Shown here: one piece after another, positions 3,534 through 19,512 of the stretch
Layout: each line of letters starts with the position of its first letter
Position numbering within the stretch: the first letter of the stretch is position 1
From: Candidatus Parcubacteria bacterium
GTDB taxonomy: Bacteria; Patescibacteriota; Minisyncoccia; Phycocordibacterales; CAIZLB01
Reading direction: 5' to 3'
Assembly (NCBI GenBank): GCA_039795775.1
Contig: JBDKLC010000004.1
Location: 21,982 to 85,981 of the forward strand
DNA: 64,000 bases
Notes under the pieces: generated by a model
Told to the model about the DNA's origin: nothing
Databases searched by the model: none
The model's input: only the letters and a program-made list of their open reading frames with translations
Made by a program: the position numbers and the translations under genes

Positions 3534-5054
3534 TTACTTAACGTAGTGTTTCTTGTTGATTTCGTCCATTAGTTGGGCTTCCTCCTCTTCTTTTCTACGT
3601 TTACCTTCTTGTCCTTTCTCTTTTAGTTCAGCTTCAGATAGACTTGAGAGCTCTGTTGAGCGCTTTTCGAGATATTCCACCGTGTTTAGTGCTGGATCCT
3701 CAAGTACTTCTTCAAGCAATGCATGAAGAATAAAGCCAATCTTAGGTCCTGGTGTTACATGTGTAACGTCCATAAGCCGTTTACCATCTATCTTGAGCAT
3801 CCCTACAGTAACTGGATCTCTGAGTACCTGCTCAATCATTGCTTGGTATTTTCTGAATCTATATGGGTTTTCCTTTGGTCTGCCAGTTCCTATTCGATCA
3901 CATATTCGTAGATTTATGAGGTCCCAAATGCTTTCCTCCCCTACATTGGCTACCATACGTCGAACAGCTGATAATGTAATCTGCTCTGTGTCTGAGAAAA
4001 ACATATGCCATCGAACCAGTTTCGTAACTGTCTCTATCGTTTTTGTTGGAAACTTCAGGTTTTTAAGGATCTTCTCTGTCATTCTCGCCCCTACTACCTC
4101 ATGTCCATAAAAGGTTACATCTCCTTTGTCGTCTGAGTAACGGCTAGTTCGAGGTTTACCGACGTCATGGAGCAAAGCCGCTAGTCTTACCTCAAATGGG
4201 TATTTCTTATCGGCTGCGTGCTGTACAGAGCGTAAGAGGTGCTCAAATACAGTATATGCATGTGCTTGATTTTGTTTCGCGTGTAACCCTTCTTCTAACT
4301 CTGGGATGATATAGCCTAGAATGCCTAACCGTTGAGCTAAACCCAATCCGAGCATTGGTTGATCTGAATTAAGAAGTTTTACAAGCTCGTCTCTAATGCG
4401 CTCCTTTGAAATCTTCTCAAGTACTGCCTTTTGAGCCACTATAGCCTCTGCTGTCTCAGTGTTAATCGTGAAACCTAAATCCGCGGCTAATCTTATGGCT
4501 CTTATGATTCTAAGGCCATCCTCTTTAAACCGGGTACCCGCATCCCCCACTGCTTTTAGTAGTGAGTCCTTTAGATCCTCTTGTCCATTATAAAGGTCAA
4601 TTATATGTCCTTTATCTATATCTAGGGCCATGGCGTTTATAGTGAAGTCACGTCTTTTAAGATCGTCTTCGAGCTTTGTGCTGAATGCTATCTCATTTGG
4701 GTGTCGTCCATCACTGTAGTCCCCTTCTATTCTGTACGGTGTTACCTCAACAACTTTGAGAGTTGGATCTTCTGTCGATTCTGATACTACACCTACAGTT
4801 CCAAATTTGTTTTCATAAAAGGTATTTGGAAAACCAGCAATGATCTGCTCTGGTGTTGCATTGGTTGTGAGGTCCCAGTCTTTAGGTGCTCTATTGAGAA
4901 GTAAGTCTCTCACACATCCCCCTACAAGATATGCCTCATAGCCCGCTGCTTTAAGCTGGTTTGATATTTCAAGTATTTCCTTTGGTATATGAGATATATT
5001 CATCATTTGAGCCTTCATTTCGCAATTGTAGTATAGGTTTTGATTTTTAGCCAT
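3534..5054 (-). CDS. cca: CCA-adding tRNA nucleotidyltransferase with HD domain (start could alternatively be the internal Met ~17 codons downstream)
   Basis: 506 aa; LVGGCVRDLLL nucleotidyltransferase head motif, HD-domain LHDVGK; bidirectional hairpin terminator at 3487-3520. Confidence 0.8.
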   Translation of the reverse strand: MAKNQNLYYNCEMKAQMMNISHIPKEILEISNQLKAAGYEAYLVGGCVRDLLLNRAPKDWDLTTNATPEQIIAGFPNTFYENKFGTVGVVSESTEDPTLKVVEVTPYRIEGDYSDGRHPNEIAFSTKLEDDLKRRDFTINAMALDIDKGHIIDLYNGQEDLKDSLLKAVGDAGTRFKEDGLRIIRAIRLAADLGFTINTETAEAIVAQKAVLEKISKERIRDELVKLLNSDQPMLGLGLAQRLGILGYIIPELEEGLHAKQNQAHAYTVFEHLLRSVQHAADKKYPFEVRLAALLHDVGKPRTSRYSDDKGDVTFYGHEVVGARMTEKILKNLKFPTKTIETVTKLVRWHMFFSDTEQITLSAVRRMVANVGEESIWDLINLRICDRIGTGRPKENPYRFRKYQAMIEQVLRDPVTVGMLKIDGKRLMDVTHVTPGPKIGFILHALLEEVLEDPALNTVEYLEKRSTELSSLSEAELKEKGQEGKRRKEEEEAQLMDEINKKHYVK

Positions 5055-5108
5055 TTATAATGTATGATGCCAATTACGCAATAGAAAGTAATACGTTTAT
5101 TGTGAATT

Positions 5109-5180
5109 GCACTTGTGGTGAAATGGATATCACAACGGTCTTCGGAACCGTTATTCTAGGTTCGAATCCTGGCAGGTGCA
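5109..5180 (+). tRNA. tRNA-Arg (anticodon TCG), no encoded CCA
   Basis: Manual cloverleaf fold: 7-bp acceptor GCACTTG/CAGGTGC (one G-U), D-arm GTGA/TCAC, anticodon stem ACGGT/ACCGT with loop CTTCGGA, T-loop TTCGAAT. Confidence 0.6.
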
Positions 5181-5221
5181 CAATTACCCTACTCTACTGA
5201 GTAGATAGTAAGAAATACAAT

Positions 5222-5292
5222 GCGGGTATGGTTTAGTGGTAGAACACGTCCTTGCCAAGGATGAGACGGGAGTTCGATTCTCCCTACCCGCA
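5222..5292 (+). tRNA. tRNA-Gly (anticodon GCC)
   Basis: Acceptor GCGGGTA/TACCCGC, anticodon loop TTGCCAA, T-arm GGGAG-TTCGATT-CTCCC; followed by hairpin terminator 5305-5335. Confidence 0.8.
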
Positions 5293-5631
5293 CCCAAGAA
5301 GAAGGCTCACTCTATATAGAGTGAGCTTTCTTCATTCTTACGCTATAAAAAAGCCCCGGAAAAGCCTTTAGACAGTTGTCCCAAAACTGTGGATAACTCT
5401 GTGTATATGTGTATAAAAGACAGAGTCCTTGATTTATAGGGACAATTGGTATTTGCATACTTTTTCGATAAATGGCTAACTTGCAAGGTGTTTTGGCTTT
5501 TAAGGACTTTAGACCAATATATTAAAATGTGGCACGTGAAACATATATTTTTGGTGTTAATCAGAGCATTTTATCTAGAATTTATTATATTTTTAGCCTT
5601 TCTTTATCATCGGAGGTCTATATTGTTTTTT

Positions 5632-6042
5632 ATGAAACTAAAAAATAAAAATTCAAATCAAAAGGTCAGCACCGGTAAAAAAGGGGAGTTGGTAGCTGAA
5701 AGATATTTGATCAAAAAGGGATACGAGGTCCTTGATAAGAACTATAGGAAGAAAGTAGGGGAAATAGACATTATTTGTAAAAAGGACGATATTTTACACT
5801 TTGTTGAAGTAAAGACAGTAAAAGTACCATATCCTGTCGAATTAAACCTGGGTATTCGACCAGAGGATAAACTAACCAAGCTAAAAGTAGGAAAAATTCG
5901 TACTGTAGGTGGAATGTATATAAAAGAAAGGGGATTAGTAGGTTTAGAGTATAAAATTGATGCCATAGCCGTATACCTTGGCTATACCAATAAAATTCTA
6001 CAGAGAGTTCAGGTTAAGTATATTCCGGCGATCAATGTTTAA
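5632..6042 (+). CDS. YraN-family (UPF0102) endonuclease-like protein
   Basis: GELVAERYLIKKGYEVLDKNYRKKVGEIDIICKKDDILHFVEVKT matches the YraN/UPF0102 signature; the longer ORF from 5446 is probably upstream read-through. Confidence 0.65.
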   Translation: MKLKNKNSNQKVSTGKKGELVAERYLIKKGYEVLDKNYRKKVGEIDIICKKDDILHFVEVKTVKVPYPVELNLGIRPEDKLTKLKVGKIRTVGGMYIKERGLVGLEYKIDAIAVYLGYTNKILQRVQVKYIPAINV

Positions 6043-6101
6043 TTTGTAATCAAATTGTACTCAAAGTTTGAGCCAAATTTTAATATGTGCTAAGCTGTTC
6101 T

Positions 6102-6177
6102 TGGTTTATAACGGGGTGTAGTGTAACGGCTAACATGCTTCACTTGGGCTGAAGTGACTCCGGGTTCGAATCCCGGC
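6102..6177 (+). tRNA. tRNA-Pro (anticodon TGG) with encoded CCA
   Basis: Acceptor CGGGGTG/CACCCCG, anticodon stem CTTCA/TGAAG loop CTTGGGC, T-arm CCGGG-TTCGAAT-CCCGG, then A-CCA. Confidence 0.8.
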
Positions 6178-6193
6178 ACCCCGACCAACAAGA

Positions 6194-6508
6194 ATGGATA
6201 CTCAAACAAAAAAGTTTACAAGAAAGAAGGAAGACTTCGTTTGTGAACACTGTAAGGCAGAAGTAAAGGGAAGTGGCTATACCAACCACTGTCCGGTATG
6301 TCTTTGGAGCAAACACGTAGATATTAACCCTGGTGACAGAGCGGCTCTTTGCCTTGGAATGATGAAACCTAAGAAAATTGAGGGACCGACAGATAAGTTC
6401 ATGATTGTTCATGAATGTATCGTCTGTGGCTATACAAAGCGAAATAGAATGGAGTCTAATGACTCATATGACGCTGCAGCTGCTATTGTGAAGTCTTCAA
6501 TCCGGTAA
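6194..6508 (+). CDS. RNHCP-domain zinc-ribbon protein
   Basis: 104 aa with CEHC...YTNHCPVC...CIVC; the NHCP tetrad and paired Cys motifs fit the RNHCP domain family. Confidence 0.55.
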   Translation: MDTQTKKFTRKKEDFVCEHCKAEVKGSGYTNHCPVCLWSKHVDINPGDRAALCLGMMKPKKIEGPTDKFMIVHECIVCGYTKRNRMESNDSYDAAAAIVKSSIR

Positions 6509-7808
6509 TAAGCAGTGATCGAAGGCGTTCTCTCTGAGAAGCGTCAAAATCCTCTTTGAGTGTCTGAGTACTAAGAGAAAGTATTTCAGAAAGGCTTGAT
6601 CTCTTATAGAGCGAAAGAGTTTCGTTTATATGTCGTACGGTTATTGCGTGTACGTATTTTCGGTCTAGGTTGTTACTAGAGAGTATTGTGGTAATCATAC
6701 CGATTAGATTGCCGTGTTCGTCTGTAACAGCCCCTCCTGAAGAGCCTGGTTCAGCTATAGGGGTAGTCTGAGTCTGGATCAGGTCAATATATTTACCATT
6801 GAAACTAAAGTAGTCTCGAACTGTTGTATTATCGACAAGACTTCTCAAAAGACTATTTATACTTTGTTTTTGGAGTACGAGGGCAGGGTACGCAGCAAGG
6901 ATAATCTTCTGATTTACATAAGGAGTCTCAGCAATACTCACGAGGGGGAGATATGAGAAAGACTGAGCGTTTTGGCCGTCATTCTTGAGTTTTAATAGGG
7001 CAAAATCAAATTCTCCAGTTTCCTGTGGTCTTTCTTGTGCGAGATTTTTGTAGTTAATCTCGACCCATCGTGGAGAAATATAGAGAATATCGAGGTCGTA
7101 GCTTACAGAAGTAGGGGAACCGAGGCGGGCACTACATTTTAGATTGATATTTGAAAAGTCTTTTAATAGCAATAGATATTGAGCTACGTGGGCGTTTGTA
7201 AGCACAATTCCTCTAGAATCTATGATTGTTCCACTTCCTGTGAGGATTTTCTCAGTGTTTCCTTCTTTTGTGGTGCAGTAGATGTTTACAAGTGAATTTT
7301 GAATTCGGGCCTGTAACTCATTTGATTCTGTTGGCAAAGCAATCTTCTGAACTGGCTCAGGTGTGTAAAATACTGTTGTACTGGCAACAAGAATCTTTTT
7401 TGTTGTGGTAGATGTATTTGAAAGAGGAGAGTTATCGTTGAATGTCCCATCTATTCGTGGTGTTTGAGGTGCTTTTGGATCTAAGGTCTTAATCGAGGTC
7501 TTAGCAGATTGGGATGTTGTAGCCGTAATAGCGACTTTTTGAATGATTTTTGGACCTGATGTTGGTGTTGAGGCCTTTTTTGAAGAAACTTTTGTAGAAG
7601 TAGCCGTACCTGTTATTTTAAGTACAGGCTCTTTTTGGGTAAGGGGAATAGATGTGTCTTGAATCTTGAGTTGCTGCTCTACCGCAGTAGGAAGAGGTTG
7701 TGTCGGTGTAGCCGCAGGTGGAAGGGGGGTAGAAGATCCAGTAATAAGGGTAGTAATACCAACAATAGAAGAGACAATCTTTTGGCCAATTTTTTCGATT
7801 AATGTCAT
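6483..7808 (-). CDS. Membrane-anchored trypsin-like (S1 family) serine protease with Pro/Thr-rich linker
   Basis: 441 aa; N-terminal TM helix, TPLPPAATPTQPLP linker, catalytic motifs TNAHV (His) and GSSGGAV (Ser). Confidence 0.7.
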   Translation of the reverse strand: MTLIEKIGQKIVSSIVGITTLITGSSTPLPPAATPTQPLPTAVEQQLKIQDTSIPLTQKEPVLKITGTATSTKVSSKKASTPTSGPKIIQKVAITATTSQSAKTSIKTLDPKAPQTPRIDGTFNDNSPLSNTSTTTKKILVASTTVFYTPEPVQKIALPTESNELQARIQNSLVNIYCTTKEGNTEKILTGSGTIIDSRGIVLTNAHVAQYLLLLKDFSNINLKCSARLGSPTSVSYDLDILYISPRWVEINYKNLAQERPQETGEFDFALLKLKNDGQNAQSFSYLPLVSIAETPYVNQKIILAAYPALVLQKQSINSLLRSLVDNTTVRDYFSFNGKYIDLIQTQTTPIAEPGSSGGAVTDEHGNLIGMITTILSSNNLDRKYVHAITVRHINETLSLYKRSSLSEILSLSTQTLKEDFDASQRERLRSLLITGLKTSQ

Positions 7809-7862
7809 GGGCAGAGTATAGCAAATTGTCTTTCTAATGTCTGTTTGCTATAGTATCCGTAC

Positions 7863-7936
7863 GCGGGATTGGTTTAGTGGTAGAATGACTGCCTTCCAAG
7901 CAGTAGACAAGGGTTCGATTCCCTTATCCCGCACCA
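7863..7936 (+). tRNA. tRNA-Gly (anticodon TCC) with encoded CCA
   Basis: Acceptor GCGGGAT/ATCCCGC, anticodon stem ACTGC/GCAGT loop CTTCCAA, T-arm AAGGG-TTCGATT-CCCTT, A-CCA. Confidence 0.8.
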
Positions 7937-8067
7937 GATAACAGAACAATAAAAAATATGACATATTTTCTTATTACTATCTTTGTGATCGTCTTGATTG
8001 GTTTCTTTATTACTCGAAAGCGAGGAATGTAAGTAGTAGACAGTTAGTATCTAAGTATAAATTGAAG

Positions 8068-8101
8068 GGTCCCCGCCGGCGTAGCCAGGCGGGGACCTTT
8101 T
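8068..8101 (+). terminator. GC-rich perfect hairpin terminator (GGTCCCCGCC-n10-GGCGGGGACC + TTTT)
   Basis: 10-bp perfect inverted repeat followed by TTTT on plus strand; sits between tRNA-Gly/mini-ORF and a GC-rich minus-strand gene. Confidence 0.55.
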
Positions 8102-8138
8102 GATGTTGTGAATCACGATATACAGGAGGTGAGTCGAG

Positions 8139-8693
8139 TTAGATCGTGACGTTAGGTTTGGGTGGATCCTGCGGTTGTATTTCGAGCAGTTGGTTGAACA
8201 TCTCCTTTTCGAGTTTGAGTCGCTCGAGGGGAGATTTGTCCCGCATCTTATCGATATAATCGATAAACACCTTACTACCCTTGTCATCGAGCGGAACAGG
8301 TTTGGCGTGATTTCCGTCATACAGAATGCTTACGACAATGCCACTTCTGAAATACGACACCATGCTGGGGTCACACTGTATGGTGAGTTCCGAGGGTTCG
8401 GAACTCCATTCATTGGTGACTAAGAGCATTCGCCCGTTCACGGTCAGCTCGCCGAAGCCATCGAATGATGCGCTATCGATGAGGTAGGTCTCCACCATGG
8501 TGTCTTCGGGTTGGACGAGGACTATTTTGTATTCGATGGTCTGGGGAGCCCTCGACGTCAGGAATGATAGCCTGTGGTTGATTTCGAATGCTAGATGTAG
8601 CAGGCAGACGGCTACAAACGCAAGCCCGATGATCAGGCCAAGGATACTTTTACGCGCAGTACCAGCGCTATTGTTGGATGGGTTGGTATTCAT
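8139..8693 (-). CDS. Hypothetical signal-anchored protein in a GC-rich (foreign-looking) segment
   Basis: ORF 8139-8759; likely start MNTNPSNN at 8693 followed by a TM helix ILGLIIGLAFVAVCLL; local GC and codon use (cgc/ggc/gcc) differ from the flanking genes. Confidence 0.45.
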   Translation of the reverse strand: MNTNPSNNSAGTARKSILGLIIGLAFVAVCLLHLAFEINHRLSFLTSRAPQTIEYKIVLVQPEDTMVETYLIDSASFDGFGELTVNGRMLLVTNEWSSEPSELTIQCDPSMVSYFRSGIVVSILYDGNHAKPVPLDDKGSKVFIDYIDKMRDKSPLERLKLEKEMFNQLLEIQPQDPPKPNVTI

Positions 8694-8833
8694 CAATCTG
8701 CACAGAAATATGCACAAATAAAAACAGAGGAGCAATCTGTACAAATTGATGAATATCAACTTGAAAAGATCTTACTGAGCCTGATAGTACAACTTTAAAA
8801 TTCTTCGTCAATTAAAAGTGTAGAAAATAACAT

Positions 8834-8868
8834 AAACAAAAAATCCGCATTGCTGCGGATTTTTTGTG
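8834..8868 (-). terminator. Rho-independent terminator of hup
   Basis: AATCCGCA-ttgc-TGCGGATT hairpin with T-runs on both sides. Confidence 0.6.
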
Positions 8869-8908
8869 TGGGTTGTATTCGAAACTGAAATATAAGTAGA
8901 GTTCTTAC

Positions 8909-9181
8909 TTATTTTACAGCGTCTTTGAGTGCTTTCGCAGCTCGGAACTTTGGAACATTCATAGATGGAACATTGATAGTTTCACCTGTTCGTGGGTTTC
9001 GTGCTGATCGAGCTTCTCGCTTCTTCACTGAGAAGATACCAAGACCTGCAATTGAAACTTCTTCACCTTTCTTAAGTGTTGCAATGATGTTTTCGATAAT
9101 TGTATCAACAACTTGTTCAGCCTGAACTTTTGTTGTACCGATAACGTCATGCACTTTTGCAACGATGTCTGCTTTGTTCAT
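8909..9181 (-). CDS. hup: DNA-binding protein HU
   Basis: 90 aa; MNKADIV...GLGIFSVKKREARSARNPRTGETI arm motif of HU/IHF family. Confidence 0.85.
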   Translation of the reverse strand: MNKADIVAKVHDVIGTTKVQAEQVVDTIIENIIATLKKGEEVSIAGLGIFSVKKREARSARNPRTGETINVPSMNVPKFRAAKALKDAVK

Positions 9182-9296
9182 AGTACTTGTTTTAAAGTAT
9201 TAAAGCTTTTAAATATTCGAACCTTCTGTCCTTAGAATTCATTATATAATAAGCCATTTTTTGCGCAATAGAATGAACAGTGCGACTCAAAGTTGC

Positions 9297-10829
9297 TTAT
9301 CGAGCAAATTCTATTGATCTAGTTTCTCGGATAACGTTTATTTTGATTTCTCCAGGGTATCGAAGCTCCTTTTCAATCCGTAAAGCTATATTTCTAGCCA
9401 TATTTTGTGATTCGAGGTCTGTGACTTCTTCAGGGAATACAAACACACGAATTTCTCGTCCTGCTTGAAGGGCATACGACTTTTCAACACCTTTATACGA
9501 ATTTGCAATAGCTTCGAGGTCTTCGAGTCGTTTGAGATAGTTTTCGATACTGTCTCGACGCGCTCCTGGTCTTCCTCCTGAAATTGCATCGGCTGTTTGT
9601 ACAATTCGTGATTCAAGTGTCTCGTACGGATATTCTTCGTGATGAGCTTGCATCGCTTTTACAATATCTTCATGTACACCGAACTTCTGAAGAATTCGTC
9701 TACCGATTTCTACGTGAGTGCCTGATACTTCGTGATCGAGAGCTTTTCCGAGGTCGTGGAGAAGGGCACCCGCTTTAGCAACAGAGACATTGGCACCGAG
9801 TTGTTCTGCAAGCATTCCTGCAATGAGAGCTGTTTCGATAGAGTGTTGAAGAACATTTTGTCCGTAACTTGTTCTAAAGTGAAGTCGTCCGAGAATTGCT
9901 ACAATACGTGGGTCGAGATTGAGAACTCCAGCTTCGAATACAGCATTTTCTCCTTTTTCTTTCATTACTTTATTTATATCTGTTCGAGCTTGTTCAACTT
10001 CTTTTTCAATCTTTGCTGGCTGAATACGGCCATCGAGCATGAGTGCTTCAAGAGCAGTCTTTGCAATTTGTCTTCGTACTGGATCAAATGAAGAGAGAGT
10101 GATTGCACCTGGTGTATCGTCTACAACAACTTCAACACCTGTTGCACGCTCAAATGCTTTTATATTTCGTCCTTCTTTTCCAATAACTTTACCTTTAATG
10201 TCATCTGAAGGAATTGGCACATGACTTGTGAAAAGATCTGCAGATACTGATGTAGCAAGTCGTTGAATTGTTGTTGTGAGGATCTCTCGAGATTTTTGTT
10301 CGAGTTGGTCTGTACCAAATGTCTCAAGCTTTCGCATTCGCACAAGTAAATCTTCCTCGGATTCTTTCTCGATAGTAGAGAAGAGTTCTTTCTTTGCATC
10401 TTCTGATGTAAGAGCCGCAACACGCTCAAGTTCTTTAGTCACTTGAGCCTGAGCTGTATCAACTTTATCCTTAATTTCCTTGATATTTTGGATACGAACT
10501 TTGAGATCCTCCACATCTTTGTCGAGGTCTTCTTGTCGTTTTTCCAAGGAATCCTCTTTTTTTATGAGGCGATCTTCAGTTTTTTTGAGATTTTCTTCCT
10601 TTTCACGTACTTCTTCACGCGCATCTTTGAGTGTATCGGATGCCTGTTGTTCTGCTTCGAGGGTAATTCGCTTCGCGTCCTCTTTTGCTTCCACCATCAT
10701 TTGCTTGATTTCAAGCTCAATTGAGCCTTTTTTACCAAGCGCTACGAGGATTCGAAGGATGTACCCAAATGCAAGTCCGACACTCCCCATGAACGCTGCA
10801 ATGAGGAGTACGGTTTGTAGTGGGACCAT
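9297..10829 (-). CDS. rny: Ribonuclease Y
   Basis: 510 aa; N-terminal TM anchor, coiled-coil, KH domain (GKEGRNIKAFERATGVEVVVDD) and HD domain (LLHDLGK). Confidence 0.9.
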   Translation of the reverse strand: MVPLQTVLLIAAFMGSVGLAFGYILRILVALGKKGSIELEIKQMMVEAKEDAKRITLEAEQQASDTLKDAREEVREKEENLKKTEDRLIKKEDSLEKRQEDLDKDVEDLKVRIQNIKEIKDKVDTAQAQVTKELERVAALTSEDAKKELFSTIEKESEEDLLVRMRKLETFGTDQLEQKSREILTTTIQRLATSVSADLFTSHVPIPSDDIKGKVIGKEGRNIKAFERATGVEVVVDDTPGAITLSSFDPVRRQIAKTALEALMLDGRIQPAKIEKEVEQARTDINKVMKEKGENAVFEAGVLNLDPRIVAILGRLHFRTSYGQNVLQHSIETALIAGMLAEQLGANVSVAKAGALLHDLGKALDHEVSGTHVEIGRRILQKFGVHEDIVKAMQAHHEEYPYETLESRIVQTADAISGGRPGARRDSIENYLKRLEDLEAIANSYKGVEKSYALQAGREIRVFVFPEEVTDLESQNMARNIALRIEKELRYPGEIKINVIRETRSIEFAR

Positions 10830-10841
10830 TGTAGTTTAAGG

Positions 10842-11411
10842 TTAGAGTACTTTGTCTACGATGCCGTATTTCTTGGCTTCGTCGGCTGACAGGAAGAAGT
10901 CTCGTTCTACGTCTTTTTCAATCTTAGAAAGAGGTTGACCTGTTGTTTTTGATAATATTTTGTTAGAAATTTCTCGGAGTCTGAGGATTCGTCGAGCACT
11001 GATTTCGATATCTGTTGCCTGGCCTTCAGCTCCGCCATGTGGCTGGTGAATCATGACATCAGAAGTAGGGAGGGCAAATCGCTTGCCTTTTGCACCAGAA
11101 GTGAGGATTATAGCGCCCATTGAAGCCGCGATACCTACGCAGATAGTAGAAACATCATTTTTGATATGATTCATAGTGTCTACAATAGCGAGACCAGCAG
11201 TAACTGATCCTCCTGGACTATTAATATAGAGATGGATGTCTTTCTTTGGATCTTCTGATTCCAAGAAAAGAAGCTGTGCAATGATAATATTGGCTACATT
11301 GTCATCAATTGGACCTCCGAGGAAGATAATATTGTCTCGAAGAAGTCGGGAATAGATGTCATATGCTCGTTCACCCAATGGTGACTTTTCGATAACTGTA
11401 GGGATAAGCAT
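10842..11411 (-). CDS. clpP: ATP-dependent Clp protease proteolytic subunit
   Basis: 189 aa; [18 protein letters not shown] and catalytic-Ser context typical of ClpP. Confidence 0.9.
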
Positions 11412-11452
11412 GCTGTTATTTAGTTAATTTGTGTGGTAATTTAGGTTCAATT

Positions 11453-12190
11453 ATGCGTTTACATCGATTTTTCGTAGCAGAAGGCTGTATAGACGGACAG
11501 AATTGTGTGGTAAAAGATGCAAAACTACTCAATCAATGGAGAAATGTGTTTCGGTATACTACTGGCAGCCGGGTACTCCTTTTTGATGGAACCGGAGCCG
11601 AATACTTGGCTCTTATCGCCAGTATAAACCCAGATAGGTCAGAACTCCAAATTTTGGAAAAAGAGATGCGTGCAACTGAAAAACAGGGTGCAAAAGGCGA
11701 TGGATCGTCAGGCCAAAAGATATATTTATTTCTTTCTATTTTAAAGAACAATAACTTTGACCTTGTACTACAAAAAGCAGCTGAAATTGGCGTAGATGTG
11801 ATCGTTCCTATTGTTTCAGATCGGGTAATCAAGAAAGGTGTGAACATGGAACGTTCGAAACGTATTTTGATAGAAGCATCAGAACAGTCTGGTCATGTGT
11901 CTGTGCCAGAACTTGAAGAACCACAGAATCTGAAAGATGCTTTAGAAAATTTTGATGGAAAACTCATCGTCTGTCAGTCAGGTGCCACACCGTGGAATAA
12001 GAAGTTAATCAGTGGTAGCAAAGATGTTTCATTCGTCATTGGACCAGAAGGGGGATGGTCACCAAATGAAACAATGTTGTTTGAGAAACTTGTTGAAAAT
12101 AAAAAATGTCAGATGGTTTCATTGGGTAATCAGACATTGCGTGCGGAAACAGCCGCAATCGCAGTCCTTAGTCTGGCGTTGCTCCAGTAA
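11453..12190 (+). CDS. rsmE: 16S rRNA (uracil1498-N3)-methyltransferase RsmE
   Basis: MRLHRFFV N-terminus characteristic of RsmE, C-terminal SPOUT-like region (VIGPEGGWS); start chosen at internal Met of ORF 11429-12190. Confidence 0.75.
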   Translation: MRLHRFFVAEGCIDGQNCVVKDAKLLNQWRNVFRYTTGSRVLLFDGTGAEYLALIASINPDRSELQILEKEMRATEKQGAKGDGSSGQKIYLFLSILKNNNFDLVLQKAAEIGVDVIVPIVSDRVIKKGVNMERSKRILIEASEQSGHVSVPELEEPQNLKDALENFDGKLIVCQSGATPWNKKLISGSKDVSFVIGPEGGWSPNETMLFEKLVENKKCQMVSLGNQTLRAETAAIAVLSLALLQ

Positions 12191-12275
12191 AGTTAAAAGA
12201 AAAAACATATGCGTCAGAGCATATGTTTTTTCTTTGTTTGTAAAAGTAGGAATTATTCCTACTTTTATACGTTAA

Positions 12276-13325
12276 CTATTTTACTTCTTCGAGGAATTTC
12301 CAAACCTTTTCGTTTGTAAGCATTGTCTCTACATAGACTGTTGCTTTCATTGGATCGGCATCCTTGTAGTAATTCAAGATAGCATCAACTTCTTTTTTCA
12401 CTTCTTCGTCTGTAACAGTGATGTTTTCTTTTACAGCGATGTCATTGAGAATGATTTGTGACTTAGCTCGCTTTTCAGCTTCTGGAGTCCATTCTTTTTT
12501 GAGATCTTCGAGTGTTTTATTGATGTGTTTCAAGTACATATCTACGTTGAGGCCCATCTGAGAAACTTGTGAAGAGAGTTCACCGAGCATTCGGTTGAGT
12601 TCTGATTCAACAAGAATATGAGGCATTGTGATAGTAGATTTTTCGATAATAGCGTCAACGGTAAGGATTCGCTTTTTATCTTTTTCTTTCTTTTCTTTTT
12701 CTGCTTTGATACTGATACCGATTTTCTTTTTGAAATCTTCAACAGATTCAAAAGCACCAAACTTAGAAATAAATTCTTCGTTTACTTCTGGGAGTGCGAG
12801 ATCACCGTGGTCATGTGAATGATCCTCAGGATTTTTCTGGTGGTGTTCTGTGTGGGCAACCTGCTGCTGAAGTTCTTTTATAGCGTCTTCGATTTCTTTA
12901 TCTTCAACTGTTACTTCTACTGAAGCAGACATTTCTTTCTTTGCGATTTTTTTGTAATCAGCAATTTCAATCTCAGGTAGGAGAGCTGTTTTGATTTTGA
13001 AACCAAAGGCTTCACCTGGAGCAACTTTAGTAATTGTTACAGCTGGAGAACCAATTGGTTTAATTTTTACTGATGTAACAATTTCTTCGTAGTGTTTTTC
13101 AAGAGCGATTCGGCCTGCTTCTTCAATGATAGCTACTTCACCAAGTCGTTCAACGAGAATCTTTTCAGGAACTTTTCCTGGTCGGAAGCCGTCCATTTTT
13201 AAGTCAGCACCAATAGTTGCAAGAGCCTCAGCTCGAAACTTAGCTACTTCTTCAGCTGTGATTTCACCTTCGATTTCGTATTCACCTGGAACTGGTGAGC
13301 CTTTCTTAATGATTGTAAATGACAT
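12276..13325 (-). CDS. tig: Trigger factor (short form)
   Basis: 349 aa; N-terminal ribosome-binding domain with GFRPGKVP motif; adjacent to clpP as in the canonical tig-clpP arrangement. Confidence 0.8.
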   Translation of the reverse strand: MSFTIIKKGSPVPGEYEIEGEITAEEVAKFRAEALATIGADLKMDGFRPGKVPEKILVERLGEVAIIEEAGRIALEKHYEEIVTSVKIKPIGSPAVTITKVAPGEAFGFKIKTALLPEIEIADYKKIAKKEMSASVEVTVEDKEIEDAIKELQQQVAHTEHHQKNPEDHSHDHGDLALPEVNEEFISKFGAFESVEDFKKKIGISIKAEKEKKEKDKKRILTVDAIIEKSTITMPHILVESELNRMLGELSSQVSQMGLNVDMYLKHINKTLEDLKKEWTPEAEKRAKSQIILNDIAVKENITVTDEEVKKEVDAILNYYKDADPMKATVYVETMLTNEKVWKFLEEVK

Positions 13326-15140: not shown

Positions 15141-15541
15141 ATATTTATTTGTGTATTTAATTGTTATTTTCCTTATTCTTAGCCATATTTTAGCTGTTTT
15201 TGATCAAAAATTGCTTAAAAATCAATCAAAACGTCAAAATTCGGCAAAAAATTAAGCCCGCCGGTGGAGGCGAACTTCTGAATACGGCTATAATAAGGCA
15301 TTTTTCTGTATATGTCAACCTGTTGTGATGGCTAATGTAAGCCATTTTTAGCCTTTTTCGGCCTTTTTATACTATATATAGTGCCTTTTGGTCTCTTTTT
15401 AACACAAATTGTGTATAAAATGCTTGATATTTTATACAATATCTTGTATAGTTTGTATAGACATTCTGTCTCACTTCACGTTACCGAGTCACTGACGTTC
15501 GTTAACACAACCACAACAAACCAAACCCATAAGGAGGGTTC

Positions 15542-17896
15542 ATGAAAACAAACCAAACACGTCTGATGTTGGCCGCCTTGTGGCTGCTAACTTTCTTCAC
15601 TGCAACTGCTCGCAGCGACACGATCAATGGCTATTATGGCTACACCGTGGCGCCCGCGCGCGATGATTATCCTGACTATCCGGTGTTCCAAACCTGGAGC
15701 ATTGATTTTCAGGGAAGTCTCTACAACGGAGCGGACTCGCCTAGCCAGGGGGTTCCGCATTCATATAAGCTCTTCCGTTCGGGAGGTATGCACGTTGAAG
15801 CTCATCGTCTCATCTCTTCGGTGACGACGCTCGGGCTATGGGAATCGGAGATCGACGCAAACCGTCCTCCGCTCCCTGGGGAGACACAACAAAATCCCTT
15901 CAATATCCAGAAAGGCAATCAACTCGTCCTCGGAATCCGGCTGCAAAGCCAAACCAAATTCCGACTTAAGGATATTGTCTATGGGGTGGGAACTACGAGT
16001 TCCTCTGGGATCTTCGGATACCAGAAAGACATGGCTGCACAAGCCACGTTTAAGATCCCATTCATTCTGGGCCGTTACTACGGAGCAGATGGCATCGCCG
16101 GCACGCCGGATGATGTCTCCTACGGAAACTTCACGCCGAATACGGCGCCGATCAACGAGATCACAATCATCATTGGTCAAGGCATAAACATGGATGCTGA
16201 GACCGGAACAACTGATGCTGAGCGTCTTCATAAAGCGCTTTCGAAATTCAACGAAGACTTCCAAGTCTGGGCCACCGCTAAGGTATGGCCCTACGATGAT
16301 TCGAGGACTACAACGCCTTTCGAGGTGACGGGTCCCCAGCTCACTGTTCTCGCGGTGAATCCCATCATTCGCACTGCTCCGACTTCACAATCGGCGCGGC
16401 GCGGACACAACGCTACCTTTACGGTGAGCGCGACAGGCAAAGACTTGAGTTACCAATGGTTCCGCGACGGGGCGACGATTGATGGTGCGACAAGCGCCAG
16501 CTACACAATCAGCTCAGTAACGGACGCCGACGATGCAGCACAACTGCGCGTAACGGTAACGAATAGTTTTGGTGAGGCAGTCAGCGATGACGTCTCGCTC
16601 ACGGTGACACCACCGTTTGCACCCACAGCTGTGACTGGTAGCGCCTCTGGCGTAACCACAAACAGTGCGGTGCTTTCGGGCACCGTGAACACCAACGAGG
16701 AACCCTCAACAGTCTGGTGGATAGAGTACGGGGACAACAACTCGTATTCGAATCTCACACCCCTGACGGCGCTTCAAACGTCGGCAGATATGCAACAAGT
16801 TTCGGTCGCCATCGGCGATTTGATTCCACGTCGGGACTACATGTTCCGGATCGTTGCACAAGGGCCAGGCGGCACAACCTACGGTGAAGATCACTTCTTT
16901 ACTACGGCGACGCCGACACAACCCTTCCTGGGTGTGAGCGGGACCTTCCAAGGTCTCATTGGTGATAATGGCGAGGGGATGATGAATATCACACTCGCCA
17001 AGACTGGTAAGTTTACTGCTGTAGTTTCCTTCGGGGGCAAGCGGTATAGCGTCAAAGGTCGTTTCGACAATGACGGCAAATTCTTGGTTCAGCTCGGCAA
17101 GTCCGGGTTGCTCCTGAGCTTGTCGCTCGATGTTTACGATACCGGCGAACTTACGGGTGGAATTGTTGGTGCAGGAGGTGGAGACGTTCAATTCGTCCGC
17201 CGCGCGGTGTATAGCCGCAAAAATCCAGCACCACAAACAGGGGACTACACCTTGCTTGCGCATCCGACGGAAATCGTCGGTCCAATTCCTCAGGGCGACG
17301 CGAGTCTGCTCATGAAGGTCACCAAAACCGGCCACGTTACACTGGTCGGTAAACTACCGGACAACACGCCAATCTCCCAAGGAGGAGCTCTGGCAACCGA
17401 TAACTCATTTCGCGTCTTCACTCGCCCCGGGCGAAAAGGCGTGATCGCTGGATTTGTGGCCTTCGAGGCTACGACCACAAAAGATCTCTCCGGAGATCTC
17501 TACTGGAACAAGCCAGCAAATGAGAAGGCAAAGCAGTATCCGCAAGGATTCGCTGCAAGCCTGTCGGCCGAAGGTTCTCGCTATGTCGCGGAGCCTTGGA
17601 CACAGTCGTGTCCGCCTGCTAGCCTCTCTCTTGAAAGAGGCAATCTTTTGAGCGAAATCAATCGTTCGCTCACCGGCACACCGAAGGGATTCGTTGTGCA
17701 AAACCCTGGAGGTGAAGGCCTTCAGTTGAAAAGAACAAGCAGAGGGTTGGTAACCGGGAGCTTCGTGCACCCGCTCACCAACAAACGTGTCCCATTGAGG
17801 GGCGTATTACTCCAGAAATCTGGAGGGGGTGGTGGCTACTTCGTAGGTCCTCAAGAGACCGGAAGTGTGGTTGTCGAGTTAGCTACTGGAATGTAG
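15542..17896 (+). CDS. Large secreted Ig-like plus FN3-like domain protein (adhesin-like), compositionally foreign
   Basis: 784 aa; signal peptide MKTNQTRLMLAALWLLTFFTATA; Ig I-set-like segment YQWFRDGATIDGATSASYTISSVTDADDAAQLRVTVTN; FN3-like segment; perfect SD AAGGAGGG 6 nt upstream; GC roughly 55% or higher against ~40% flanks. Confidence 0.6.
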   Translation: MKTNQTRLMLAALWLLTFFTATARSDTINGYYGYTVAPARDDYPDYPVFQTWSIDFQGSLYNGADSPSQGVPHSYKLFRSGGMHVEAHRLISSVTTLGLWESEIDANRPPLPGETQQNPFNIQKGNQLVLGIRLQSQTKFRLKDIVYGVGTTSSSGIFGYQKDMAAQATFKIPFILGRYYGADGIAGTPDDVSYGNFTPNTAPINEITIIIGQGINMDAETGTTDAERLHKALSKFNEDFQVWATAKVWPYDDSRTTTPFEVTGPQLTVLAVNPIIRTAPTSQSARRGHNATFTVSATGKDLSYQWFRDGATIDGATSASYTISSVTDADDAAQLRVTVTNSFGEAVSDDVSLTVTPPFAPTAVTGSASGVTTNSAVLSGTVNTNEEPSTVWWIEYGDNNSYSNLTPLTALQTSADMQQVSVAIGDLIPRRDYMFRIVAQGPGGTTYGEDHFFTTATPTQPFLGVSGTFQGLIGDNGEGMMNITLAKTGKFTAVVSFGGKRYSVKGRFDNDGKFLVQLGKSGLLLSLSLDVYDTGELTGGIVGAGGGDVQFVRRAVYSRKNPAPQTGDYTLLAHPTEIVGPIPQGDASLLMKVTKTGHVTLVGKLPDNTPISQGGALATDNSFRVFTRPGRKGVIAGFVAFEATTTKDLSGDLYWNKPANEKAKQYPQGFAASLSAEGSRYVAEPWTQSCPPASLSLERGNLLSEINRSLTGTPKGFVVQNPGGEGLQLKRTSRGLVTGSFVHPLTNKRVPLRGVLLQKSGGGGGYFVGPQETGSVVVELATGM

Positions 17897-17918
17897 CAGC
17901 TCTCGAATCCCGTCGTTT

Positions 17919-17944
17919 CCCCCGGGTGCGCAAGCACCCGGGGG
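17919..17944 (+). terminator. GC-rich hairpin terminator after the foreign gene
   Basis: CCCCCGGGTGC-gcaa-GCACCCGGGGG followed 11 nt later by a T9 run. Confidence 0.5.
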
Positions 17945-18090
17945 AACGATGAGGATTTTTTTTTGCATTTTTTTGCAAAAAGTTTTTTATAAACACAACT
18001 TCATTGTATGTAGGGTTCAGATTGATTATAATTGGAGAAGCAAAATAGTCTTCTCTATTTTTTATAATTTATATTCTTGCGTATCAAATA

Positions 18091-18438: not shown

Positions 18439-19512
18439 ATGAAAAAGAAAATCACACTCGTAGTTCACTTTCTTTTGCTTCTCATACTTCTTGTTGGAGG
18501 AATTGCTGTTCATCGAACCGTAATGGCTCAGGTCTCAACAGGAAATGTCACAGGATGGGCATGGTCAGACAACATTGGATGGGTAAGTTTCAATTGTTCT
18601 GACGTCTCAGATTTGTGTACAACGGCTTCATATGGAGTAGATGCAGATCCAGACACTGGGGCTCTTTCTGGGTATGCTTGGTCGGAAAGTGTTGGATGGC
18701 TTAGTTTTAATCCAGGGGATACAGGAGGATGTCCTGATGGAACTAATTGTGAAGCTAAAGTAGATTTTGCTACAGGAAAAATTACTGGATATGCACGTTT
18801 TTGTTCGGCTACTGCCAATGGCAATTGTACTGGAGGTATAGGTCCAGATGGATGGGACGGTTGGTTGAAACTTTCTTCGCCAGGTTCACCAAGTCTTTCA
18901 TCTCCAGTACTCGATGGGTCACAAGGTGCAACATATGATGCAAATACAACAAAAATTATGGGATATGGATGGGGAGGTGATGTTGTTGGATGGCTCAAGT
19001 TTAATAATTCATACAACGGAGTAAAAATTACTATAGATGTAAATAATCTTAAATGTAAGATCGACGAAACTGAATTTGATCTCAATACATTTATTACACG
19101 GTATAAGACAGGAGTAGCAACATCCACAGAAGCTTGTGAGTCATACTCTTCAACTTGTGAACAAGTAACTCCAACAGAAGCTGACTGGAACACAGATATT
19201 ACACCTATAGCTGACGGAACATATTCATATAGTACATGTACAGTTTCTTCAAGTACTTCGTGTGCAGAAGGAAATAACCCTTGTGATATTTCTGCATATA
19301 CTCAGGGTACAAATCTAGGACAGACAATGTCGTGTGGTGAGCAACGAAAGTTTTATAAACAAAAAGTTGTAGTAAACAACGCTGCTGGAACTATCTCATG
19401 TGAATCAAATGGAAATGCCGCTGTGCGAGTATGTGACAACGGAGTACTTACAGGTGATTCTTCATTCAACAAAGTTATTTGTCGAGTGAATCCGTATCAG
19501 AAAGAGCGATAG
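18439..19512 (+). CDS. Secreted Cys-rich repeat protein with tandem GxAWSxxxGWxSFN repeats
   Basis: 357 aa; signal peptide; repeats TGWAWSDNIGWVSFN, SGYAWSESVGWLSFN, MGYGWGGDVVGWLKFN plus a degenerate copy; many Cys; start overlaps previous stop by 4 nt (operonic). Confidence 0.5.
   Translation: MKKKITLVVHFLLLLILLVGGIAVHRTVMAQVSTGNVTGWAWSDNIGWVSFNCSDVSDLCTTASYGVDADPDTGALSGYAWSESVGWLSFNPGDTGGCPDGTNCEAKVDFATGKITGYARFCSATANGNCTGGIGPDGWDGWLKLSSPGSPSLSSPVLDGSQGATYDANTTKIMGYGWGGDVVGWLKFNNSYNGVKITIDVNNLKCKIDETEFDLNTFITRYKTGVATSTEACESYSSTCEQVTPTEADWNTDITPIADGTYSYSTCTVSSSTSCAEGNNPCDISAYTQGTNLGQTMSCGEQRKFYKQKVVVNNAAGTISCESNGNAAVRVCDNGVLTGDSSFNKVICRVNPYQKER

Follow-up and report, generated by a model that had tools for sequence, protein, structure and literature searches.

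The 64-kb stretch of Candidatus Parcubacteria DNA analysed here (the window; part of contig JBDKLC010000004.1) contains a gene whose composition departs strongly from that of its surroundings. It is a secreted-protein-type open reading frame (ORF) of 784 aa, placed at 15542..17896 on the + strand by the ORF list of the window. It lies where the original prediction put it, with nusA upstream and divergent, and with pilus genes downstream that encode PilB (T2SSE), PilC (T2SSF) and N_methyl pilins. Related genes at the same place in two other lineages suggest that it is probably a functional, long-resident gene of a small sub-clade of Paceibacteria (Parcubacteria), gained once in a cargo region between nusA and pilB. 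The features of the gene and its flanks are as follows.

15424..15452, + strand: sigma-70-like promoter TTGATA-17-TATAGT in AT-rich DNA, from a consensus scan and conservation
15460..15541, + strand: CA-rich 5′ leader of ~80 nt that ends in a Shine-Dalgarno (SD) sequence, read in the sequence; the GC step starts here
15542..15613, + strand: signal-peptide-like N-terminus, MKTNQTRLMLAALWLLTFFTATA directly before RS, from inspection of the translation; no lipobox Cys
15614..16357, + strand: N-terminal domain, residues 25-272, fold unassigned; matches only in the three orthologues
16359..16606, + strand: Ig-like domain, residues ~273-355, from Pfam Ig_3
16620..16903, + strand: FN3-like domain, residues ~360-454, tentative, from a sub-threshold Pfam fn3 match and protein matches
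16904..17893, + strand: all-beta C-terminal domain, residues 455-784, of a large family without a Pfam model
17904..17968, + strand: Rho-independent terminator, an extended GC-rich hairpin followed by a T-run, from folding energy, with its core at 17917-17946

The GC content of the gene is 0.541, against 0.404 in the remaining window, and the GC content at third codon positions (GC3) is 0.576, against 0.23-0.42 in the 36 other window ORFs of at least 200 aa. The GC steps, seen in 200-nt windows, are sharp and lie at ~15480-15500 and ~17950: GC climbs from ~0.32-0.38 to >0.51 between 15400 and 15600, and drops from 0.49 to 0.35 between 17800 and 18100. The tetranucleotide distance of the gene (z = 7.1) exceeds that of every other 2.4-kb stretch of the window. 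Among arginine codons, CGA has a share of 0.06 against 0.65 in host genes and CGC a share of 0.35 against 0.01; the Pro, Ser, Thr, Val and Leu codons are shifted in the same way. The original prediction of a GC-rich gene with codon preferences opposite to those of the host is thus borne out, and GC3, tetranucleotide distance and codon usage all mark the gene as compositionally foreign.

Two homologues, P0121 (771 aa) and P0122 (663 aa), were found by exhaustive HMMER searches also to cover the N-terminal part of the protein. Both are encoded between nusA and pilus genes, one on a contig of SRR11567522 and the other in GCA_964500215.1. The window locus is termed W here, the two other carrier loci L002 and L003 (L003 being in GCA_964500215.1), and the loci of 80 reference relatives L004-L083. 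The two orthologues share 46-48% of their amino acids with the window protein. They are its best and only full-length matches, found at the same locus in relatives and equally GC-rich, with a GC island of 0.51-0.56 against ~0.40 in both loci. The L003 orthologue (10001-11992) is short by ~110 residues, which is roughly the third of the C-terminal barrels described below, and its in-frame stop still lies shortly ahead of the conserved terminator.

Within 10 kb of nusA, no homologue was found in any of the 80 reference genomes (NusA identity 66-84%), which include L004 and L005. In a tree of NusA, PilB and trigger factor (Tig), W and L002 form a clade (85.8% identity) and the sister clade of L004 and L005 (~77%) is without the gene: the site is effectively empty in L004, where the gap is 341 bp, and holds unrelated cargo in L005. 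Metagenome scans gave no match to the N-terminal domain and only Ig-domain matches to the full-length query. The simplest and likeliest history would be that a common ancestor of the three carriers gained the gene once.

The gain does not appear to be recent. At fourfold sites under conserved residues, identity between orthologues is 0.27-0.35, against 0.25 expected from composition. The gene family appears to be under purifying selection, since reading frames of 663-784 codons are still open in the three orthologues despite these randomised sites.

Yet the foreign composition has not faded. The GC content at fourfold sites (GC4) is 0.53-0.56 in the three orthologues, against 0.10-0.31 in flanking genes. 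An amelioration model for transferred genes is said to have been set out by Lawrence and Ochman in 1997. The present gene agrees with amelioration in that its GC3 (0.52-0.58) falls between that of donor-like genes (0.64-0.69) and that of the host (~0.30), and in its near-flat codon usage; it differs in that its synonymous sites are randomised, so that simple decay should be complete. Under an F81 decay model with the most lenient calibration, passive amelioration needs an ancestral GC4 of 0.78-0.95, and calibration on the target gene itself gives a value >1, which is impossible. The housekeeping flanks used for comparison have a fourfold identity of 0.42-0.62 against 0.32-0.37 expected. It should be pointed out that this signal may reflect codon-bias constraint, because the neighbouring gene h357 (described below) is no less saturated than the target wherever W is one of the two loci compared.

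The foreign composition has thus outlasted the prediction of simple theory. Codon-specific selection was considered and rejected: codon usage is nearly flat, with an effective number of codons of 56-58 in the gene and its orthologues, against 41-46 in the host. The L002 copy leans slightly to host codon usage. Active maintenance looks more likely than slow passive amelioration. The full proposal that both the GC-rich composition and the strong SD are actively maintained, with the gene at a compositional equilibrium of its own in an AT-rich, SD-less (leaderless-style) genome, is tentative and on the unlikely side; were it true, a possible reason would be that expression is tuned by a separate SD-dependent, rare-codon route.

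The signals for expression are also shared by the three loci. The 29-nt promoter block recurs at both orthologous loci as TTGAT(A/T)-17-TATA(G/A/T)T, with 2 mismatches at one and 5 at the other, and was not found in the intergenic regions of the sister clade. Its sequence and conservation suggest a host-type promoter of the 784-aa gene. Capture of a promoter from the pilus genes was considered and rejected: in none of the 80 relatives was the block found ahead of the pilus genes, and sister-clade homology stops at the nusA promoter. A riboswitch or structured leader was likewise discarded, with no Rfam match and a leader fold that is not significant (z = 0.18).

The SD sequence TAAGGAGGG at 15530-15538 forms a duplex of -12.4 kcal/mol with the anti-SD, whereas the best pairing among 38 other window genes is no stronger than -5.9 kcal/mol. 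A scan independent of gene calls shows that it contains the only AGGAGG in the 64 kb that lies 3-11 nt ahead of a start codon with an ORF of at least 80 aa. The textbook SD, described earlier as the sole one of the window, behind a CA-rich leader and among SD-less neighbours, therefore stands; the spacer of 6 nt assigned to it does not, as the arrangement is AAGGAGGG-TTC-ATG, i.e. 3 nt after the 8-mer. The orthologues carry an AAGGAGG SD (-12.6 and -11.9 kcal/mol). Host genes are without an SD, and in many of them the ATG is preceded, at a distance of just 6-12 nt, by a TATAAT-like box, e.g. at the starts 1236, 6483(-), 22467, 28048 and 57600. These boxes so close to the ATG suggest that host mRNAs are mostly leaderless.

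The terminator core is a perfect 13-bp stem (17917-17929/17934-17946) with a GCAA loop. The extended hairpin, at ~-45.5 kcal/mol and z = -7.9, is the most stable of the window and its sole GC-rich terminator. The terminators of the orthologues fold alike (-45.3 and -33.3 kcal/mol), and in L003 the stem has a different sequence with pairing that is still perfect. The contention that this hairpin is unlike host terminators is correct as to composition, since the host stems are A/T-rich, and incorrect as to kind, as other host terminators are also long hairpins (-30 to -40 kcal/mol). Between the convergent genes rsmE and tig, for example, 12190-12276 consists of two long A/T-rich hairpins of -32 to -37 kcal/mol, which appear to be a bidirectional terminator in the typical host style. 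With a terminator of its own, the 784-aa gene should be a transcription unit separate from the pilus genes.

The divergent order of nusA and pilB is conserved across the Paceibacteria examined, with a gap that ranges from ~150 bp to 6.5 kb, and the contents of the gap indicate a variable cargo hotspot. In L005, the closest reference relative, the cargo at 4443-9651 (-) comprises a reverse transcriptase (RVT_1), a regulator resembling TrmB and a pair of GC-rich ORFs of 469 aa and 259 aa, whose GC3 values of 0.63 and 0.64 stand against a background of 0.42; this cargo may be a retroelement such as a diversity-generating retroelement (DGR) or a retron. L024 has at 3861-4592 (-) a 243-aa ORF with a signal peptide, a GC of 0.54 and a GC3 of 0.58 in a 0.38 background. 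At its C-terminus is a PEP-CTERM motif (23.9 bits; cut-off 20.7), a sorting signal for the exosortase of diderms that would not be expected in a Parcubacteria-type genome. A GC-rich 165-aa ORF is found in the L012 gap. A strong SD together with a GC-rich terminator is not a general trait of hotspot cargo, as the other GC-rich cargo genes are without a strong SD.

Between the carriers and the sister clade, homology at the site is limited to the nusA promoter and a conserved leader hairpin, and then ends. The segment from ~15320 to ~17960 is carrier-specific and starts just past the nusA promoter. The locus bears no mark of a mobile element: neither direct nor inverted repeats flank it, no integrase was found, and the nearest tRNAs are ~7.5 kb or more away. 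Upstream of nusA, at 15254-15318 (-), is a promoter-like TTGACA-17-TATTAT directly followed by the hairpin AAGTTCGCC-loop-GGCGGGCTT AATTTTTT with a T-run. The hairpin occurs in five genomes (W, L002, L003, L004 and L005) with a conserved stem and a variable loop, and looks like a promoter-proximal terminator or attenuator. Among the carriers, the flanking proteins are more alike than the 784-aa protein and its orthologues (46-48%), with identities of 85% for NusA, 79% for Tig and 51-64% for h357. The latter is a fast-diverging 357-aa protein encoded at 18439-19512, with GWAWSxNIGWISF-type repeats and no Pfam match; in many relatives its homologue is the usual first gene beside nusA (L024, L026, L035, L038, L040, L058, L059, L066 and L067).

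The gene product appears to be modular. By inspection its N-terminus looks like a signal peptide. No LPXTG motif, lipobox Cys or class III N-methyl pilin motif was found in the translation, and Pfam N_methyl does not match the protein, whereas it matches the neighbouring pilins. The N-terminal domain has no Pfam or NCBIfam match; among the 150 matches listed from a HMMER search of 1.84 billion representatives, it is matched only by P0121 and P0122. The identity of this domain among orthologues is 48-49%, and its AF2 model, with a predicted local distance difference test (pLDDT) score of 31, was not interpreted. Word-indexed searches with the N- and C-terminal parts gave nothing, not even the identical database protein, and were discounted; exhaustive HMMER was used instead.

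Residues 274-341 pass the Pfam Ig_3 model (PF13927; 32.6 bits against a gathering score of 30, E = 1.2e-7) and fail I-set (PF07679; 22.1 against 23.7 bits). About 200 multi-Ig proteins match the Ig region at 40-60% identity. The FN3-like region fails fn3 (PF00041; 14 against 25 bits), and PF00041 and PF16656 proteins match it at 35-38% identity over 15-18% of the query. The secreted Ig/FN3 architecture of the original prediction was broadly right: the Ig-like domain is upheld, the I-set assignment is not, and the FN3-like domain stays below the cut-off.

The C-terminal domain belongs to a family for which exhaustive HMMER gives 3,613 cluster representatives with E <= 1e-3, of which 2,353 reach E <= 1e-10. 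It has no Pfam or NCBIfam match, TbpB-type families included, and no sequence relatives in the PDB. Family members usually carry it at the extreme C-terminus of larger secreted proteins, with partner domains that include InlB-B-repeat-like, Big_9, cadherin-like, trypsin-like peptidase and fn3. The structure model (pLDDT 92.7) is all-beta with ~24 strands, and strand number and aligned length point to what are probably about three tandem eight-stranded small beta-barrels. The eight-stranded barrels of the NHBA C-terminal domain, fHbp, the TbpB/LbpB lobes, HpuA and hemophilin match it at only 9-16% identity; they differ in that the present domain probably has about three barrels in tandem, and the 784-aa protein is without a lipobox. 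The match to these Gram-negative surface lipoproteins and haemophores is generic, since the scores of OmpA-like, avidin and de novo barrels are just as good. Bacteria of the candidate phyla radiation (CPR) are generally considered to be without an outer membrane.

A modular, beta-rich extracellular protein of binding type is a plausible reading of this architecture, and an adhesin role in host attachment might follow from it. A phage receptor-binding protein was considered and rejected, with no match in BFVD. The closest likeness is to bacterial Ig-like/FN3 extracellular proteins of Verrucomicrobiota, Planctomycetota and Acidobacteriota, which share an Ig_3-type domain (40-60% identical), an FN3-like domain and the same C-terminal domain family. 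Those proteins have long Ig arrays, whereas the 784-aa protein has one Ig copy and an orphan N-terminal domain, and is encoded by a CPR host.

The relatives of these modules lie in GC-rich DNA. Of the 80 metagenome contigs that carry the closest Ig modules, none falls below a GC of 0.45, and their median is 0.58; for Paceibacteria nusA loci the median is 0.41. Named Ig-only matches include metagenome-assembled genomes (MAGs) of Planctomycetes, Verrucomicrobiota, Acidobacteriota and the Chlorobi group. Three non-orthologous proteins with the C-terminal domain were examined; their contigs have a GC of 0.56-0.61 and their genes a GC3 of 0.64-0.69. Their neighbours, ExbB/ExbD, a TPS protein, and a PATR protein or DUF1080, form a diderm-type context. 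At least part of the gene thus appears to be foreign, because the sampled members of both the Ig and the C-terminal domain families are on GC-rich contigs. Together with the foreign composition and the absence from the 80 relatives, this makes horizontal origin, which had been proposed for the whole gene, the best reading for at least part of it.

The gene could instead be native to the lineage and never transferred, its GC content coming from a gene-specific constraint (e.g. on mRNA or translation rate), with loss in the relatives. An N-terminal domain seen only in this sub-clade, a conserved host-type promoter and a composition that is steady through saturation are what such a gene would be expected to show. 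However, the sampled Ig and C-terminal domain families are on GC-rich contigs, the sister clade and the other reference relatives do not have the gene, and the SD is unique among otherwise SD-less genes. Furthermore, relative synonymous codon usage correlates with that of donor-like genes at r = 0.32-0.60 and with that of the host at only -0.07 to 0.39. A native origin is therefore rather improbable.

Distinctly improbable too is repeated independent acquisition, in which each lineage would have taken a different allele from a GC-rich donor into the same hotspot. The site does hold other GC-rich genes in other lineages, the synonymous divergence of the target is above that of the housekeeping flanks, and such a history would account for the unameliorated GC without selection. 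Yet the three loci have in common a carrier-specific, AT-rich promoter block, the junction layout, and a homologous leader and terminator. In addition, no full-length or N-terminal domain match from outside was found among the 150 best matches of the 1.84 billion search or in the metagenome scans. Re-acquisition is thus unlikely, given the shared promoter and junctions and no outside reservoir of the N-terminal domain.

A recent horizontal insertion private to W, with little time for the composition to fade, was implied by the original prediction and draws on the strong composition contrast, the foreign codon usage, and the gene's own SD and terminator. It is now very unlikely, as two lineages have 46-48% identical orthologues at the same locus, with a like promoter, SD, terminator and GC island, and fourfold sites are randomised between orthologues. 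The prediction had itself named same-locus relatives of similar composition as the result that would speak against it, and these are what was found.

Targeted mutagenesis of a DGR variable protein might explain fast divergence. DGRs are common in CPR bacteria, and one relative, L005, has a reverse transcriptase between nusA and pilB. The idea is scarcely credible here: in the 64-kb window there is neither a reverse transcriptase nor any repeat that could be a template for a part of the gene, and divergence runs across the whole protein and not one variable region.

An assembly chimera, i.e. a fragment of a GC-rich organism spliced into a Parcubacteria contig, was the alternative offered originally; its probability is negligible in spite of the sharp GC steps at both ends, as two mis-joins would have to be placed so precisely that they enclose just one gene along with its leader and terminator. 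A Logan contig of 29.4 kb, assembled from the single run SRR35181295, covers both junctions and matches the window with 100% identity along 19,992 bp, and the identical protein is on record from a 91.5-kb contig of a Candidatus Parcubacteria MAG. A mis-join is excluded by the three samples with diverged sequences, SRR11567522 and GCA_964500215.1 being the other two, that have one arrangement.

Several points weigh against a single old gain of a foreign gene. L003 was left out of the three-gene tree, its pilB being incomplete. With only three carriers, the distribution may reflect loss in the sister clade instead of gain. The closest non-orthologous proteins with the C-terminal domain are only 29-38% identical, and none points to a donor. 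The N-terminal domain is without relatives beyond the three orthologues, so that a native or newly evolved origin is possible for part of the gene. With regard to persistence, the F81 model is crude and its flank calibration is perhaps distorted by codon-bias constraint, and the flat codon usage and the drift of L002 fit slow amelioration better than codon-specific selection.

With these points weighed, a single gain followed by long residence is still the probable history. The ancestor of the sub-clade would have gained the gene once, inside the variable region between the divergent nusA and pilB. The gene would form its own transcription unit, running from a host-type promoter through a leader of ~80 nt, whose SD is strong, and the coding sequence to a strong intrinsic terminator. 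The predicted signal peptide would export a product made of the orphan N-terminal domain, the Ig-like and FN3-like domains and the approximately three-barrel C-terminal module. The Ig and C-terminal modules would have come from families on GC-rich contigs, at least part of the gene being foreign in consequence. Binding of a ligand or surface outside the cell is the most likely role, and the secreted protein may be linked to the type IV pilus genes that lie beside its own gene. Although synonymous sites turned over, all three lineages have kept the SD and the foreign, GC-rich composition.

Horizontally acquired islets for surface or secreted proteins show comparable properties: atypical GC and codons, a patchy distribution among relatives, a position in variable DNA flanked by conserved genes, and a product that is modular and secreted. 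The present case differs from these in having no integrase, tRNA or repeats, in being a single gene that is old and syntenic in three lineages, in not being ameliorated, and in combining a host-type promoter with a foreign-type SD. Nothing specific to this case was found in the literature.

Some results can be used apart from the gene itself. The nusA-pilB hotspot repeatedly holds GC-rich genes, one of them with a PEP-CTERM signal. The C-terminal multi-barrel family, with more than 3,600 cluster representatives, has no Pfam model and no solved structure. The gene is also a clean natural test case for amelioration theory, as its foreign composition persists past synonymous saturation.

The Parcubacteria are uncultured and reduced, and their partners and mechanisms of attachment are mostly unknown. 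One concrete candidate for surface interaction is a conserved binding-type protein with predicted export, encoded beside pilus genes. Type IV pili are implicated in DNA uptake in CPR bacteria. It is a possibility, though not a likely one, that the gene was captured from the diderm bacteria to which these episymbionts attach and that the protein now binds their surface. If this is true, the nusA-pilB hotspot beside the type IV pilus genes would preserve genes taken from the hosts and would hint at which hosts these are.

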